Below are positions 3,563-43,454 of a stretch of 64,000 nt of DNA, piece after piece. The notes beneath the pieces were generated by a model that saw nothing but the letters and a program-made list of their open reading frames with translations, ran no database searches and was not told the origin of the DNA. The DNA is from a phage. Made by a program: the position numbers and the translations under genes. The stretch lies in the sequence record PZ171032.1. One strand, written 5' to 3'. Every line of letters begins with the position of its first letter. The stretch's first letter is position 1.

Positions 3563-4324
3563 ATGCGACGACTGATTATTATCTCCGGTGCTGGTTTGAG
3601 CGCTGAATCTGGTATTCCCACTTTCCGATCTGGTAGCACTGCAATGTGGGAGAATTTCAGCATCGATGAGGTGTGCAACATCCACACCTTTGCCAAGAAC
3701 TACTACAAGGTGCATGACTTTTACAATGCACGTCGTGTAGCTCTAGGCGGTGTTGAGCCTAACCTTGCACATCTTCGGATCGCTGAGTGGTATTCCCGCT
3801 GGTCTGGTCGTGTGATCAACCTTACCACCAATGTAGATGATTTGCTGGAGCGTGCTGGTGTAAAACATGAAGATATTTTACATGTTCACGGGTATTTGCC
3901 AGAAATAGTCTATGAGGACGATGAAGGAAGTGACGTCATTAAGGACATTGGATACTCTGAGGTAGATGCAGGAAAGTATACCTGGGTTAAACCTAATGTG
4001 GTGTTCTTCGGAGAAGTAGCTCCGAAGTATACAGACATGTATGACCTGTTGACTTCTCTTACAAGCAATGATATAGTTATCCTTGTAGGGTGTTCCAACA
4101 CAGTTATCAATTTTAACTGGGAGCTATTCCCTGCCTGCAATAAGGGCACCAAACTGCTGATCGTTAACAAATACGACTCACAGCATCTAGAGGAGAATGG
4201 CATTTCACGTAGTGATATTTACCAGTACGAGGATCGCGGCATCCCGGTTTGGTTTAACGGGGCGGTTGACGCTTTCTCTGATAAAACATTCATTGAGACC
4301 GTAGAAAACTTTATGGAACTTTAA
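3563..4324 (+). CDS. Sir2-family NAD-dependent deacylase / ADP-ribosyltransferase-like protein
   Basis: IISGAGLSAESGIPTFRS (GAGIS..GIP.FR motif), NVDDL, HVHG; lacks the paired CxxC zinc motif. Confidence 0.7.
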   Translation: MRRLIIISGAGLSAESGIPTFRSGSTAMWENFSIDEVCNIHTFAKNYYKVHDFYNARRVALGGVEPNLAHLRIAEWYSRWSGRVINLTTNVDDLLERAGVKHEDILHVHGYLPEIVYEDDEGSDVIKDIGYSEVDAGKYTWVKPNVVFFGEVAPKYTDMYDLLTSLTSNDIVILVGCSNTVINFNWELFPACNKGTKLLIVNKYDSQHLEENGISRSDIYQYEDRGIPVWFNGAVDAFSDKTFIETVENFMEL

Positions 4325-25802: not shown

Positions 25803-25832
25803 TTGACAAAGCTTTGTTTAGATAGGTATAAT
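25803..25832 (+). promoter_or_regulatory. sigma70-type promoter (TTGACA-18-TATAAT)
   Basis: Consensus hexamers read directly. Confidence 0.7.
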
Positions 25833-33626: not shown

Positions 33627-33910
33627 CAATGAAAAAGATTAACAGTGGTGAAGTTGAGTTTAAACTTGTCGGGAAAGGCACTTACTGGGAAGTTCGTCAA
33701 AAGGTATATTTGTTCGGTCTTATTCCCTATTGGTCTAAATTCTACTGGGGAGCTAACGAGTTGGGAAGATACGCCACCAAATCAATGGTACTTATTGGTA
33801 TAGCAGAGTACATTGCAGCCAGAGATAGGGTTGGAGACACTTATTACTATACTGCGGACGATATTCGTAACAGTGTTTACGTCCCACAACCACCTGATGG
33901 AGACCGTTGA
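33623..33910 (+). CDS. hypothetical protein
   Basis: 95-aa ORF. Confidence 0.4.
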   Translation: MTMKKINSGEVEFKLVGKGTYWEVRQKVYLFGLIPYWSKFYWGANELGRYATKSMVLIGIAEYIAARDRVGDTYYYTADDIRNSVYVPQPPDGDR

Positions 33911-34134
33911 TGAAAGTTAAAGTTTTAGATTCAAGCTTCTATATTGGTCAGGAGCCTTTAGTAGGAAAAGTGTTTACTGCTATCCCTAACGAAGATTACC
34001 CTGACCTTTTAAAAATAAAAGGAGCAGATCTTATTGCCGCTGGTGCATCTCAGGACTGCTTTGACAGTCAGTGGACCTACAACTTTGCCCTAGGCGAGGA
34101 TGTAGAGGTAGTGGAGGACGATCATGAAGGTTAA
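33907..34134 (+). CDS. small acidic protein, paralog family A (duplicated module 1)
   Basis: MMKVKVLDSS...LLKIKGADLIAAGASQD...DVEVVEDDHEG. Confidence 0.55.
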   Translation: MMKVKVLDSSFYIGQEPLVGKVFTAIPNEDYPDLLKIKGADLIAAGASQDCFDSQWTYNFALGEDVEVVEDDHEG

Positions 34135-34378
34135 AATTCTTGATTCTAACGTCTACTTGGGACAATCCTTCCTGAAGGGAAAGGTCGTTCCTGCGGTATA
34201 CTTTGAAGGGTTGCCGTGGGATGATCCTGTGCGGCAACATCACAGTTATGTAGGCCACAACGTGGTGTTTATCTTGGGATCAGACCTGATCACCGCTGGT
34301 GCACCTGAATATTATTTCGGGGAAGAGTCCTATTATGCCTTTGGGGTAGGGTCAGATGCGGATATTGTAGAGCTGTGA
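34124..34378 (+). CDS. small acidic protein, paralog family A (duplicated module 1)
   Basis: MKVKILDSN...VVFILGSDLITAGAPEY...YYAFGVGSDADIVEL; C-terminus matches 36241 ORF (FAFVVGSDVEVIEE). Confidence 0.55.
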   Translation: MKVKILDSNVYLGQSFLKGKVVPAVYFEGLPWDDPVRQHHSYVGHNVVFILGSDLITAGAPEYYFGEESYYAFGVGSDADIVEL

Positions 34379-34390
34379 TGGGTAACCGTT

Positions 34391-34789
34391 GTGAAAAATA
34401 AACTGTTTAAAGTTACAATGAAAATTCGCGGAGCTTGGAGCGTAAAGCAAGGGCGTATTCCGGAATTTGAGAAAGACTTCTACGTAGTCTCCACCTCGGA
34501 GGAGGCTGCATGCTGGCAGGCTGGCTATGCCTATGCAAGAACCTGGTACGAAGGATACCAGACTGGGGGCTATGACGGAGAAATTATCAGCAAGGGTGTA
34601 GAAGAAATTAATGTGTTGACAAGTGAAAAAGTTTTTGTTATAGTGCATCCAGATTCCAGAGTGAAGCATTACTGGAATGCCAGAACAAAAACTTGGACAC
34701 CGTTTGCAGATTCTGCTACACCACTTTTAAACCAAAAAGCTCTTGACTCTGCCCCAAGCTATGGGGTTGTTGAAGAAAAGCTAAACTGA
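34391..34789 (+). CDS. hypothetical protein, paralog of 36600 ORF (family D)
   Basis: FVIVHPDSRVKHYWNARTKTWTPFADSATPLL aligns with FVMRHPHSNIAYYWDVLNNEWTPDLQKATVL of 36600..36995. Confidence 0.5.
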   Translation: MKNKLFKVTMKIRGAWSVKQGRIPEFEKDFYVVSTSEEAACWQAGYAYARTWYEGYQTGGYDGEIISKGVEEINVLTSEKVFVIVHPDSRVKHYWNARTKTWTPFADSATPLLNQKALDSAPSYGVVEEKLN

Positions 34790-34806
34790 AACAGTGAGGT
34801 GTCACT

Positions 34807-35097
34807 ATGATGGATTTAGTTCTGAATATTGATAACGCAGGAGAGGTTAAAGACGATGGTGTAACAAGCATGGACCAACCATGCCCTGCCAAGATTGACT
34901 CAAAATGGACATATAAGTTTGACGGAGAGATCTTTGCAAATGATGAAAAGGTTGTAGATGCTGCAGCCATTTTGAACGCTCTAGGGTACGACCCTGTGAA
35001 TTCTTTGATCAAGGATCCTGTTGAGTTTGCAGAGTATGTTCGAAAAATGGCAGATCTTGCTGTAGATATTTTAGATACTATCGATAATAAGCTGTAA
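34807..35097 (+). CDS. hypothetical protein
   Basis: 96-aa ORF. Confidence 0.4.
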   Translation: MMDLVLNIDNAGEVKDDGVTSMDQPCPAKIDSKWTYKFDGEIFANDEKVVDAAAILNALGYDPVNSLIKDPVEFAEYVRKMADLAVDILDTIDNKL

Positions 35098-35103
35098 AAA
35101 CTG

Positions 35104-35132
35104 TTGACACAACGCTTCAGCTATAGTATTAT
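35104..35132 (+). promoter_or_regulatory. sigma70-type promoter (TTGACA-17-TATTAT) upstream of the HPF-like gene
   Basis: Consensus hexamers read directly. Confidence 0.7.
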
Positions 35133-35184
35133 TGTTTTCAAAGAGAGATGGTTGTTATTCTCTCTTCCTTAAAAGGAGCACGTT

Positions 35185-35502
35185 ATGCAAATTGAAATCA
35201 CTGGCAACGTAGAAATCACTGAAGGTATGGTGTCTTTCATTTCCCACAAAATGTCTAAGCTGGAGCGTTTGCACCCCTCTGCCAACTATGCACGTGTTAG
35301 TGTAAAAGTTGAAAATGATCACCAGGAAGTTATGGCGTTCATTTTTGACAATTCTGGAAAAGAAGTTATTGCCAAAGCTAAAGGCAGTGATGCTTACGAG
35401 GCAACTGACCGTATGGTAGATGTTGCAGCACGTCAGCTGGCTAAATGCGGTGGAAAGAAAGGTAAGGGGAAAGGCAAAGTAAAGATTGACTTTGGAGAAT
35501 GA
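35185..35502 (+). CDS. ribosome hibernation promoting factor / RaiA (YfiA)-family protein with Lys/Gly-rich tail
   Basis: MQIEITGNVEITEGMVSFISHKMSKLE...VSVKVE...AKAKGSDAYEATDRMVDVAARQLAK matches recalled E. coli HPF (MQLNITGNNVEITEALREFVTAKFAKLE...VLKVE...ASAEGQDMYAAIDGLIDKLARQLTK). Confidence 0.75.
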   Translation: MQIEITGNVEITEGMVSFISHKMSKLERLHPSANYARVSVKVENDHQEVMAFIFDNSGKEVIAKAKGSDAYEATDRMVDVAARQLAKCGGKKGKGKGKVKIDFGE

Positions 35503-35511
35503 GGTGCTACA

Positions 35512-35613
35512 ATGGGCGTGATTAAGAAATTAGTCCCAAATGTAGAGATTGCATGCTTTGAAATTATGTTTGCAATCGCAGTTGTAGTTAATGTGTTAGG
35601 TTACGGCTATTAA
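35512..35613 (+). CDS. tiny hydrophobic peptide, 33 aa
   Basis: GAGGTG SD; MGVIKKLVPNVEIACFEIMFAIAVVVNVLGYGY. Confidence 0.3.
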   Translation: MGVIKKLVPNVEIACFEIMFAIAVVVNVLGYGY

Positions 35614-35639
35614 TATCAAATAATTGAGGAGACCTCTAA

Positions 35640-35909
35640 ATGAAAATTAAATTATTCAAAACTGAGCTGGCAGACAAAAATTGTGGTCTGGTTGAAGGCA
35701 TGATTGTTGAAGCACAACCAGTGGACTATATGAAGGTGGTTCGTGATGCCCTGGGTGAAGGTTTTGATCTGATGGAGCCAGCTCTGCGGGAAGATGTTAT
35801 CGAGATGGCTAAAAAGCACACACCTGAAGGTTTGGTGGTGTTTATTGCACCGGGTAACGGAGAAGAGTTGATTGTAACTCCTGATGTGTATGAGATTGTA
35901 GAGGAATAA
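35640..35909 (+). CDS. small acidic protein, paralog family A
   Basis: MKIKLF... ends VYEIVEE. Confidence 0.5.
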   Translation: MKIKLFKTELADKNCGLVEGMIVEAQPVDYMKVVRDALGEGFDLMEPALREDVIEMAKKHTPEGLVVFIAPGNGEELIVTPDVYEIVEE

Positions 35910-35999
35910 TCCTGCTTGTATTAGCATACTTCCTCGATAAGGAAGGTTTGTAATTATTTGTGGGAAAGGAATCCCATCTCTTACCAGAGGTGATACTAT

Positions 36000-36263
36000 A
36001 TGATTGTTTATTTTAAAACTTCAGGTGGATACCCTGATTCTCAAAGCTTGATCGGAAAAACGTGCACAGCATACTCACCTCTTGATGAGGAGGTAAGCGA
36101 TATTCTACGAAATATGTATCGGATTGATCCCCAAGAAGCTTTTGATCAAAACCTTGTATTTGTCAAAGGCTCAGACATGAAGTCTTTGGGAGCATTCCCT
36201 GAAGCAGATGATGATGCCGTTTATTCGTTCATGACCCCTTTTGAAGCTATGGTTGTTGGGTGA
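36000..36263 (+). CDS. small acidic protein, paralog family A (duplicated module 2)
   Basis: ...LVFVKGSDMKSLGAFPE... Confidence 0.5.
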   Translation: MIVYFKTSGGYPDSQSLIGKTCTAYSPLDEEVSDILRNMYRIDPQEAFDQNLVFVKGSDMKSLGAFPEADDDAVYSFMTPFEAMVVG

Positions 36264-36600
36264 TAATATGAAAGTACGCTTTATTGGTGAAACAATTCCT
36301 GTGCATCTCCGGTCGCCTGAAGATTCTGCGGATCTTGCATCTCAGAAGGCGAGAGGTTATGATAAGAAAGTAATCTCAACCGATGTAGAACTTGAGGCTA
36401 CTAGTCTACCTGACCCTGCTGCATTCTTTAATCATTATGGATACTATTTCAGCAATCTGATGAATATCGGTGAGCTTGTGTTTATTAGTGGTGGAGAAAT
36501 TGTTAGCAAGCTTGGCGGAGATCCGGATGTCTTTCATGAAACCTGTCCTTTTGCATTTGTGGTGGGTTCGGATGTGGAAGTTATTGAGGAGGTGCAGTAA
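36241..36600 (+). CDS. small acidic protein, paralog family A (duplicated module 2)
   Basis: MKVRFIG...LVFISGGEIVSKLGGDPD...FAFVVGSDVEVIEEVQ. Confidence 0.55.
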   Translation: MKLWLLGDNMKVRFIGETIPVHLRSPEDSADLASQKARGYDKKVISTDVELEATSLPDPAAFFNHYGYYFSNLMNIGELVFISGGEIVSKLGGDPDVFHETCPFAFVVGSDVEVIEEVQ

Positions 36601-36995
36601 TGGTAAGCCTATACCGTGTTGAGTATAGCTCAGATACTGTATACAACGTAAGAAGCAAAGATCGCAGCGACAGAGTGCAAGAAATGTATGTTCTTGCCGA
36701 CAGTCCGTTATCTGCAGCGTTCAAGGCAGGGGCTCTTGCATCTCGTTGGAAATTTGAAGGCGGATCTTTCTATGAAGAAACCCTTGAAGATTCTGTTGTT
36801 ATTTCTTCTGTAGAGGTTTCAGATGACTACGAAGGGAAAAAGTTCGTAATGCGGCACCCACACAGCAACATTGCGTACTACTGGGATGTTCTGAACAACG
36901 AGTGGACCCCAGATCTTCAGAAGGCCACTGTGCTAACACCGTTTTTGGCAGATAAGTTCCCACCAGAAGGTAATTTATCCGCACTGTTTCAGTAA
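36600..36995 (+). CDS. hypothetical protein, paralog of 34391 ORF (family D)
   Basis: See 34391..34789; same position relative to two family-A genes. Confidence 0.5.
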   Translation: MVSLYRVEYSSDTVYNVRSKDRSDRVQEMYVLADSPLSAAFKAGALASRWKFEGGSFYEETLEDSVVISSVEVSDDYEGKKFVMRHPHSNIAYYWDVLNNEWTPDLQKATVLTPFLADKFPPEGNLSALFQ

Positions 36996-37013
36996 TTTTC
37001 TTGCACACAGGTG

Positions 37014-41147: not shown

Positions 41148-42489
41148 TAAGTTCTTCTCTTTTCTTTTACCGAGTAATTCGGGTTTTCTGTTCTCTTCGG
41201 TTTGAAGGGGTATGGAGATACACCTGAGTGAACAGGGTGAACAACCGAACATTCGGCTATGGCATTAGCATGGCGAAGCGAACGGGTGACGAAAGAGGGG
41301 CCGGAGGACACCAGTCACTGCCATATGATATATGGGTGATAACCTGAAGAGTCTGAATAAGTGTTTAAGTACCAGTCAGAGGAAAAGGTGAATGGTAGCC
41401 GAAGGGGGAGGGGGGGTTTCTTGTATCTTTAATTTGTATATTATGTATACACTTGTAAACCAATTTCATCTGAATCTGTTTACCATACAAAGTGGATTGA
41501 GACAAATATTACCTATTAAACTTGAATTATTTATAGAAAATACCACAACACACCTTAAGTCTTTGATTTTACACATAAATCCTACAGATATTCAACCTCC
41601 ATATTTAACATACTTGTAACATATCCTATACCACACCTGCCTGATCAATTTCCCCAACTACATCCTCTATATTTTACCTGCCTGTACTACCCCTGCCCCG
41701 CCGGGAGTCCCGTCATATCTGGCTTTCCAGCAAATATCCCACCAACAAATATCATTGCCTGAAGAGGGTTTCATCCCATAATACATGCCTTATCTGAAGA
41801 GCGCTTCATACACCACGTAAATTTTTTAATTGACCCCTCCCCGCCGCCGGAGAGGTTGGCTTTTCCCACACAGACCTGAAGAGTCAGCCAGAAATATCTG
41901 AATAGGCCCAATTCTACCACGATTTTGACCTGACCTACAGGGAGGCCCGAAGGGTCTAGCTTTCAGCTAGAGTCCTTGCAGGACCTACAGGAGTGCTGCC
42001 AGGCGGACGGAATGGGAATACTTCTCATTTTTATAATAATTCTCAAATATCGAGGCAGTGAGGCAAATTAATAGGTGAGGCCGTTCACACAGTGGCACAA
42101 CATTTGCAACCTATCTTGTGTGGGGGAATGATAATACCTATCATTGTGAGAACCATTATCATTACGGGCAATTTAACATAATACCCATTATGCGCACCAC
42201 TGGCGATACATACAGGGATTGATAACATGAGTTACAGTTTACGCATATAACAATTATATTTCTTATCATTTGTGTGGGATATAGTTAGCAGCCAATAGAT
42301 TAGATATTGACCTGCATACTTCCAACCGTCTAGACGTCTAAACGCCCACACACCAAGGATTATACATACACTCCTGAATGTAAACAGGGCCGCAAAAATG
42401 CTACCATACAAGCTTGTAAATTTTTCATGCAGCACTTGACAAAGAGGAGAAAAACTTGTCTGACATAATGTGACCTAACTGACACAACA

Positions 42490-42590
42490 TGACACTTTTA
42501 CACACCTATTAGTTTACACACTGGATTGTTTACATTCCTGATTGTTCACATGCTAACCATTTACATGATTGACTGTTTACACACCGATAA
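42490..42590. repeat. iteron-like array: six copies of a TTTACA(C/T)-containing motif at roughly 15-bp spacing
   Basis: Read directly: cTTTTACACAcc, aGTTTACACAct, tGTTTACATtc, tGTTCACATgc, cATTTACATga, tGTTTACACAcc. Confidence 0.6.
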
Positions 42591-42594
42591 TCAG

Positions 42595-42843
42595 CCATGC
42601 CATTCGTTTGCATGACAATAATTATACATGACAATAATCGCACTGATTATAATTAGCATGACATAATATAAAAGCAGGGCAACTATTAGCAGATCTATAG
42701 TTGCCCTGCTTGTTATGTCATGATTAACTAAATACAAGGCAACTATGATCTGATTAATAGTTTGCAGACAAACTATCACGGGGGTGATGGTTACTGCTTT
42801 TATATTATGTCGCGACTCCGTCGCGCCATGCCATTCGTTTGCA
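42595..42843. repeat. direct repeat pair CCATGCCATTCGTTTGCAT (about 230 bp apart) flanking a perfect 14-bp-stem palindrome (42673-42710) and CATGACAATAAT repeats
   Basis: Read directly. Confidence 0.6.
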
Positions 42844-43454
42844 TAGTTGCCTTATTGTTACAGGTAAAATAATTACATTATTAATTATTTCTTATCTTTC
42901 TCTTAGTCATCTAATGATTCCAGTCAGTATAGTAATGTACAGTAAACATTAGACGACTAAATATTTCTATGCTTATGATAACTTGCCGTGACAATTTCGG
43001 ACTGTTTACGAAAAATGTTGACACCTGGGCGGGTTTATGTTATGCAGTTTACACGAATAATTATTTCATACAGGTATTGACTATTCCGTTATTCTGTGGT
43101 TGGAATAAATACTTTGCAGGCTATAGAATGGTGTGCGTACGTGAATTCTAAGATCTGGCGGCTATAGTTACACCCGATTTTTCACGTAGAACACGCTTTT
43201 TGGTTTGTGTAAGTGTATGACTTATAAAGATTTTTAGTTGTTGACAGGATATTGAAGATGTGCATCAGGTTAAATTTTGTGCAATAGCTGCAGTACGTGC
43301 ATTTTTGGAAGGAAAAACGTGTAAAAATGGTCCTGCTACCACATAATGAAAGATTATGCAATAGCTATTTTATATGTATATTTGTACAGTGTGTGGGATT
43401 GATGGCTCGTCAATTATTCCACTTGCTGGGTGGGGCCGTTTGTGGTAGGAGGAG

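Follow-up and report, generated by a model that had tools for sequence, protein, structure and literature searches.

The question raised by this locus is whether a phage encodes its own ribosome hibernation factor and, if so, what the protein would do to the ribosomes of the infected cell. Phage-encoded ribosome-associated proteins are a small and mostly uncharacterised class, and a viral HPF that steered host ribosome hibernation would tie infection to the growth state or dormancy of the host, a tie that matters for phage therapy directed at slow-growing bacteria. The gene lies in a stretch of phage DNA of 64,000 nucleotides (record PZ171032.1), which was analysed as a whole and is referred to below as the window; coordinates are those of the window unless another sequence is named. 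A preliminary description, made from the letters of this DNA, had claimed a protein of the HPF/RaiA family with an extra basic C-terminal tail, expressed from a strong promoter of its own.

Results and Discussion

Identity of the Gene and of Its Product

The open reading frame of 105 codons was recovered with the sequence quoted in the preliminary description, tail GGKKGKGKGKVKIDFGE included, and the span given there for the locus, 35104–35502, corresponds exactly to the segment from the −35 hexamer through the stop codon. The features recognised in and next to this segment are listed in Table 1.

Table 1. Features of the phage hpf locus, with window coordinates and the basis of each assignment.
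Feature	Position	Strand	Basis
Sigma70-type promoter TTGACA-17-TATTAT (rV5 P144); −35 hexamer TTGACA 35104–35109, 17-nt spacer, −10 hexamer TATTAT 35127–35132	35104..35132	+	Sequence and scan, 11/12 consensus positions
Stem-loop at the start of the 5′ UTR; arms AAGAGAGA (35141–35148) and TCTCTCTT (35159–35166), 10-nt loop	35141..35166	+	MFE fold, cross-phage comparison
Shine-Dalgarno sequence AAGGAG, 6 nt 5′ of the ATG	35173..35178	+	Read from the letters
HPF-type coding sequence, 105 aa, ATG start	35185..35502	+	ORF reading
HPF-fold core, aa 1–88	35185..35448	+	Pfam PF02482 (residues 3–88), AlphaFold2 core, Foldseek
Lys/Gly-rich C-terminal tail GGKKGKGKGKVKIDFGE, aa 89–105, and TGA stop codon	35449..35502	+	AlphaFold2 disorder, charge
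Hydrophobic ORF of 33 aa (rV5 ORF145)	35512..35613	+	ORF list; annotated in rV5, Murica and V18

The claimed membership in the HPF/RaiA family was borne out by profile searches, in which the cut-offs of both Ribosomal_S30AE (Pfam PF02482; 48.3 bits against a cut-off of 23.7, E 1.8e-12, residues 3–88) and TIGR00741 (HPF/YfiA family; 45.9 bits against 40.9) were passed. The closest solved structures by sequence were the E. coli HPF chains 2rql, 4v8h and 6h4n (E about 5e-12, residues 1–89). Identity to E. coli HPF was 41%, versus 23% to E. coli RaiA, the comparison sequence of which was confirmed as an exact match to PDB chains; the corresponding tblastn E values were 1.7e-14 and 0.02. The best NCBIfam match was the HPF equivalog NF007780 with 55.8 bits, as compared with 17.6 bits for the RaiA equivalog NF007654. 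Both scores are far below the level of an equivalog, at least 125 bits for NF007780 (enterobacterial short HPF) and at least 158 bits for NF007654 (RaiA/YfiA), and a RaiA-type tail was absent as well. Judged from its sequence, the phage protein is a diverged member of the family of the short-HPF type and the equivalog of neither host protein.

Two names in use for this protein were rejected. The RefSeq/PGAP product name "RaiA" is imprecise, given the 23% identity, the score of 17.6 bits and a dissimilar tail of opposite charge, and nothing in the analysis bears on sigma-54, so that "sigma-54 modulation protein", a historical name of HPF derived from its rpoN-operon context, was not accepted as a functional description.

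The window belongs to an rV5-like Vequintavirus and the gene is gene 144. More than 100 Vequintavirus genomes, those of I29, PDX and rV5 among them, matched the 3-kb region around it at 97–98% identity. In rV5, a sibling phage with about 98% DNA identity, ORF144 encodes a 100% identical protein (gp144, ABI79209) behind the same promoter and between the same neighbours, and the differences at the gene, in the −10 hexamer and the UTR loop, are minor. Since the original record, GenBank entry DQ832317 of rV5 has carried ORF144 as "sigma 54 modulation factor" together with the feature "Sigma70-type promoter; P144". The labels given to the gene vary across records ("sigma 54 modulation factor", "RaiA", "HPF", "PSrp-1 ribosome-associated protein Y", "hypothetical protein"). 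In OR062525, OR062530, MT884008 and MT884010 it bears the wrong label "ATP-dependent protease La type I", and in APCEc02 the label "sigma 54 modulation factor" has been misplaced onto the downstream ORF.

Predicted Fold and Ribosome-Contact Residues

The AlphaFold2 model of the phage protein, obtained with an input alignment of 21 sequences, had a mean pLDDT of 85.9 (above 90 in the core) and contained the elements E2–7, H13–29, E33–43, E46–55, E60–67 and H70–89. The preliminary description had named the profile match and the fold as checks on its assignment, and both bore it out: besides the profile scores given above, the model has the β-α-β-β-β-α fold and superposes on solved HPFs with an rmsd of about 1 Å. 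When the model was compared with the PDB by Foldseek, the top 37 matches were without exception ribosome hibernation or subunit-interface proteins (HPF, RaiA, pY and relatives), the best of them being V. cholerae HPF (4hei_A, TM 0.93, rmsd 1.0 Å); for ribosome-bound E. coli HPF (6h4n_x) a TM of 0.90 and an rmsd of 1.1 Å were obtained.

Residues in contact with the ribosome were taken from the cryo-EM structures of Gram-negative HPF/YfiA complexes (bioRxiv 10.1101/2025.10.07.680626) and are given in E. coli HPF numbering. The phage protein keeps K23, K26, E44, E60, R83 (the m4C1402 contact), K87 and K91. Replacements were found at Q29 (to R), at H62 (to I; V is common at this position in cellular HPFs) and at K80, K89 and H95 (to V, G and G, respectively), and Phe occupies both of the β3 positions, T53 and H55, that touch m2G966 and the C-terminus of uS9. 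The basic α2 residues K80 and K89 touch 16S rRNA in all the Gram-negative structures (bioRxiv 10.1101/2025.10.07.680626). At position 80, the cellular sequences compared have K in 17 cases out of 21 and V in two, and the protein of the sister lineage described below likewise lacks K80 and K89.

The C-Terminal Tail

The extra basic tail that had been claimed is present, rich in Lys and Gly and disordered by prediction. After K87 the last helix closes in Cys-Gly-Gly and is followed by the disordered tail, with a pLDDT below 50 for residues 92–103. The 17 residues of the tail carry a net charge of +3.8 and extend 10 residues beyond the end of E. coli HPF. Members of the genus preserve the reading frame of the tail, and the window and phage Aya differ there by synonymous changes and a single V-to-I replacement. 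In the sister lineage the tail is also basic but of another sequence, SKSKGIDKRTAKWDY. In both phage lineages the tail ends in K-hydrophobic-D-aromatic (VKIDFGE and AKWDY), a sequence pattern that could be a functional element.

In two records, APCEc02 (L006 401–706) and Murica (L007 401–700), indels of +1 and −1, respectively, lie in GGGG/AAA homopolymer runs of the tail-coding region (window 35455–35480) and lead to products of 101 and 99 aa, in which the tail is altered or truncated. Either the last residues of the protein are dispensable or these frameshifts are homopolymer sequencing errors. The V18-type phages carry a one-codon insertion (GNNVEIT), which restores the loop length of E. 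coli HPF.

Promoter and 5′ Untranslated Region

The strong promoter claimed for the gene, TTGACA-17-TATTAT, was found as described and is the counterpart of rV5 P144, in which the −10 hexamer is TATCAT instead of TATTAT. Its −35 hexamer starts 7 nt past the stop codon of the preceding gene, and transcription would start near A35140. In the window, 18 sigma70 matches at 11 or more of the 12 consensus positions were detected versus 1.66 ± 1.25 in Markov shuffles (about 11-fold), and the P144-type promoter can therefore be regarded as one of a real set. These matches follow the orientation of the genes: as far as 41 kb they lie on the + strand and past 44 kb on the − strand, with one exception near 1.2 kb. 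The enrichment supports the use of unmodified host RNA polymerase for much of the phage transcription, in agreement with an earlier suggestion of Kropinski et al. Since the promoter of the gene is close to the host sigma70 consensus, unmodified host RNA polymerase could transcribe the gene from the start of infection. Two of the 18 matches are perfect 12/12 sites, at 25803 (+) and 50322 (−).

The 8-bp stem at the beginning of the 5′ UTR would begin at about +2 of the transcript. The folding energy of this hairpin alone was of no significance (z = −1.66), and it was retained as a feature only because of a compensatory change across phages, one stem pair being A-T in the window versus G-C in rV5, APCEc02 and Aya, with Murica and V18 showing a mismatch that is intermediate between the two. 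Across the Vequintaviruses the stem persists with a loop of 4 to 10 nt, that of the window being 5 nt longer than that of rV5; the stem is absent from the sister lineage with the 64%-identical HPF. By analogy with stabilising hairpins known at the 5′ ends of transcripts, such a stem may protect or stabilise the 5′ end of the mRNA. The downstream ORF145, for which no Pfam family was found, is probably co-transcribed from P144, because the two genes are separated by a gap of 9 nt and no terminator is present between them.

Genomic Surroundings

The position of the gene in a phage was confirmed, and it lies within an array of small early genes. Pfam searches with ten neighbouring small ORFs revealed no family, a tblastn search of the 64-kb window with E. 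coli RMF gave nothing better than E 2.6, and neither a tRNA nor an Rfam family was found in the window. With no tRNA, Rfam family or Pfam-recognisable neighbour, no translation module is visible around the gene.

Paralogous ORFs are present in the early array, namely the adjacent ORFs 33907–34134 and 34124–34378 (39% identical, E 7e-16) and the ORFs 34391–34789 and 36600–36995 of about 131 aa (28% identical, E 8e-10), none of them with a Pfam family. Further downstream, about 1.8 kb (41600–43400) is poor in ORFs, with mechanical ORFs of at most 75 aa only. This region is the counterpart of the rV5 "non-coding" region 104013–106618; its GC content dips to 0.35 at 42.5–43.0 kb, and the orientation of genes and promoters flips within it. 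It contains a cluster of inverted repeats with the common core GGCAACTAT (perfect 15-nt arms at 42672–42686 and 42697–42711, and further arms of 18 nt at 42660–42677 and 42794–42811), as well as an exact direct repeat of 20 nt at 42594 and 42825, and gave no Rfam match. It could be a replication origin, a zone of convergent transcription or a non-coding RNA locus.

Distribution, Sister Lineage and Selection

The gene was found in 119 of about 121 Vequintavirus records. A word-indexed search of 5.8 billion clustered proteins recovered five, all of the phage family itself: the rV5 cluster with its 163 member sequences, protein P0004 with 64% identity, and three others that are fragments or variants. 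An exhaustive search of 1.84 billion representatives gave 22 matches at E ≤ 1e-3, with the best cellular relative 45% identical, and a single-protein scan of IMG/VR gave two Vequintavirus-like loci only. The phage HPF family is narrow. One of the 22 matches, P0006 (1160 aa, 8 stretches), is a repeat protein without relation to HPF and was discarded.

Window positions 34000–37000 are also matched by eighteen records that bear the name "Campylobacter phage" (MG0656xx, e.g., MG065658 and MG065661; host C. jejuni). Those among the matches listed are about 97–98% identical to the E. coli Vequintavirus of the window, and the records probably carry a wrong label or stem from co-isolated coliphages.

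Protein P0004 is encoded on Logan/ENA contigs of 125–137 kb (L002–L005), with hpf at 4001–4312, in the same position of a syntenic array of small genes. It has a promoter of its own (L002 3949–3977, TTGACA-17-AATTAT with a TG extension), and the −35 hexamer with its context, AAACTGTTGACACA, is common to the window and this lineage. The DNA of the contigs was 60–80% identical to INPHARED phages over at most 14% of the 3-kb query, and the contigs appear to represent an uncultivated sister lineage of Vequintavirus. The synteny of this ortholog and the promoter in front of it, in a divergent lineage, indicate that the gene and its private promoter predate the split of the lineages, and the GC content of the gene (0.425), matching that of the window (0.429), indicates that its acquisition was not recent.

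Between the window and Aya the gene differs at 26 synonymous and 6 nonsynonymous positions (dN/dS 0.045), and a dN/dS of 0.062 was obtained in the comparison with V18. As judged from these ratios (0.04–0.06 within the genus), the gene is under strong purifying selection and is kept functional.

Published Work on rV5 gp144

The gene, its promoter and the viral-HPF hypothesis are already annotated and published. The rV5 protein was included, as a viral HPF, in a list of virus-encoded ribosomal proteins by Mizuno et al. (2019, PMC6375957), who placed it among the HPFs of Gammaproteobacteria, the HPF of phage GAP32 being placed with Firmicutes. On expression from pBAD24 in E. coli, peptides of the viral HPF were detected in the crude extract and none in the 70S or 100S fractions, and the 100S particles were unchanged; the authors raised the possibility that the viral HPF competes with factors of the host and keeps ribosomes from dimerising (PMC6375957). 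The ribosomes had been prepared from uninfected end-exponential cells (OD600 of 1) and passed through a sucrose cushion with 0.5 M NH4Cl before the gradients, and growth phase and salt stripping were mentioned by the same authors as possible causes of the missing association. The presence of hpf in five rV5-like isolates was reported by Mathieu et al. (2020). A literature search for experimental follow-up on the phage HPF after 2019 found none.

The E. coli factors RMF, HPF and YfiA are loosely bound stationary-phase proteins that are lost when ribosomes are washed in high salt. The high-salt wash and the use of uninfected end-exponential cells therefore leave room for reversible binding of the phage protein, and the single published negative experiment is not decisive. 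The present analysis adds to the earlier work the purifying selection, the sister-lineage copy, the residue changes, the tail and the 5′ stem. The hypothesis is thereby sharpened to that of an HPF-type core with a tail that is extended as in RaiA yet basic, with changes at ribosome contacts, maintained by purifying selection and present in a second lineage.

Possible Function of the Phage Protein

The explanation preferred here is that gp144 is an HPF-type protein that binds vacant host ribosomes, parks them in a RaiA-like manner and hinders the formation of 100S particles; taken as a whole, it is given an even chance of being correct. The part concerning binding is rather probable: by analogy with the cellular factors, gp144 would reversibly occupy the A/P-site region of the decoding channel in vacant 30S or 70S particles of the host through the retained residues K23, K26, R29, E44, E60, R83, K87 and K91. 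The basic tail would leave helix α2 where the RaiA tail does and head toward the RMF/anti-Shine-Dalgarno pocket. Idle ribosomes would then be parked as protected 70S monomers, the host RMF/HPF pathway to 100S would be interfered with and dimers would not be promoted, so that, in hosts that grow slowly or are shut off, a usable pool of ribosomes would remain available to phage mRNAs. This RaiA-like outcome, in which 70S monomers would be held and the RMF/HPF route to 100S hindered, is proposed only tentatively. In the cellular complexes the RaiA tail runs toward the RMF pocket and the end of short HPF does not (bioRxiv 10.1101/2025.10.07.680626), and the outcome is favoured by the phage tail leaving the same helix as that of RaiA and continuing 10 residues beyond the end of HPF. 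The unchanged 100S particles reported by Mizuno et al. (PMC6375957) fit a protein that does not promote dimers. Against the preferred explanation stand the lack of association with 70S and 100S in the same study, the loss of K80 and K89, the presence of Phe at positions 53 and 55 in place of T and H, and a score far below the equivalog level; furthermore, the tail whose path is at issue is predicted to be disordered, and two genomes have frameshifted, shorter tails. An extended version, in which the HPF core would sit in the decoding channel and the Lys/Gly tail in the RMF/anti-Shine-Dalgarno pocket, is considered unlikely. The protein would then be a counter-hibernation factor that blocks host 100S formation, and perhaps the access of ribonucleases or defence systems, until it is evicted as phage mRNAs initiate; if this were true, Vequintaviruses could make use of gut E. 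coli in slow growth or stationary phase.

The strong early-type promoter and ribosome-binding site, together with the HPF fold, most of the contact residues and the location within an array of small early genes without known families, would also suit an inhibitor acting in host takeover, in line with the suggestion of the preliminary description that the protein could stall or reprogram host ribosomes. It would be an abundant early protein in the A/P sites of free ribosomes that lowers initiation on host mRNAs, with abundant phage mRNAs that have strong Shine-Dalgarno sequences getting through nonetheless. This possibility is doubtful. Constitutive expression from pBAD24, overnight and to an OD of 1, was accompanied by normal 70S profiles and no reported growth problem, and no ribosome association was detected (PMC6375957). 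HPF-type factors act irrespective of the mRNA, so that phage translation would be hit too. The gut and sewage hosts of such phages are often slow-growing, and binding could be weakened where K80 and K89 are missing and positions T53 and H55 altered; both points speak for a pure anti-hibernation decoy, a weakly binding HPF mimic that would compete with host HPF and RaiA for the same site and be easily displaced by initiation factors, leaving or making stationary ribosomes translation-competent. Such a reading was proposed by Mizuno et al., and the protein was not retained on salt-washed ribosomes (PMC6375957). It is given a low probability, and it overlaps the preferred explanation, the sole difference being whether the bound state is an inhibitory one.

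The negative ribosome association test (PMC6375957) is also what would be expected of a fold repurposed off the ribosome, for example as a binder of small ligands or RNA of the dsRBD-like α-β-β-β-α class. A phage precedent is Acb4, an anti-CBASS sponge reported to resemble V. cholerae HPF 4HEI in structure, if distantly (bioRxiv 10.1101/2024.12.30.630793), and the Acb4 chain 9e4w_N did appear in the Foldseek list, but at rank 50 with E 0.03 and TM 0.50–0.58, versus 1e-9 and 0.9 for the HPFs, i.e., about seven orders of magnitude below them. In the PDB sequence search, SPO1 Acb4 (9e4w) gave no match to the phage protein even at E up to 10. With 41% identity to HPF and the rRNA contacts R83, K87, K23 and K26 kept, a role away from the ribosome is very improbable.

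Comparison with Other HPF and RaiA Proteins

Among viral proteins, the HPF homologues of Cronobacter phage GAP32 and phrog_8990 are likewise Ribosomal_S30AE members encoded by large myoviruses. The phage protein matches its own family, phrog_12469, at 7.5e-71 and phrog_8990 at 1.5e-6, in agreement with separate families, and the HPFs of the rV5 type and of the GAP32/phrog_8990 type were probably acquired independently.

With the short HPF of E. coli (YhbH; 2rql, 6h4n and 6h58) the phage protein has in common the fold (TM 0.90, rmsd 1.1 Å), 41% identity over residues 1–89 and a similar N-terminus (MQIEITGNVEITE in the phage protein and MQLNITGNNVEITE in E. coli HPF). The two differ in length (105 versus 95 aa) and in their C-terminal ends, a Gly/Lys-rich disordered tail in the phage protein and KDKLKQH in E. 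coli HPF, as well as in transcription, which is driven by an early-type sigma70 promoter in the phage, whereas E. coli HPF belongs to the rpoN operon. The short C-terminus of E. coli HPF leaves the RMF site free, whereas the phage tail is longer. E. coli HPF turns the 90S dimers induced by RMF into 100S particles, and the phage protein was without effect on 100S in the published test.

The fold is also that of E. coli RaiA (YfiA, protein Y), which, like the phage protein, extends past helix α2. The two tails have no sequence kinship and opposite charges, that of RaiA being acidic (24 residues, net charge −3.1) and the 17-residue phage tail basic. A RaiA-like fold combined with a C-terminal extension makes a mode of action in which 70S ribosomes are parked and not dimerised plausible for the phage protein.
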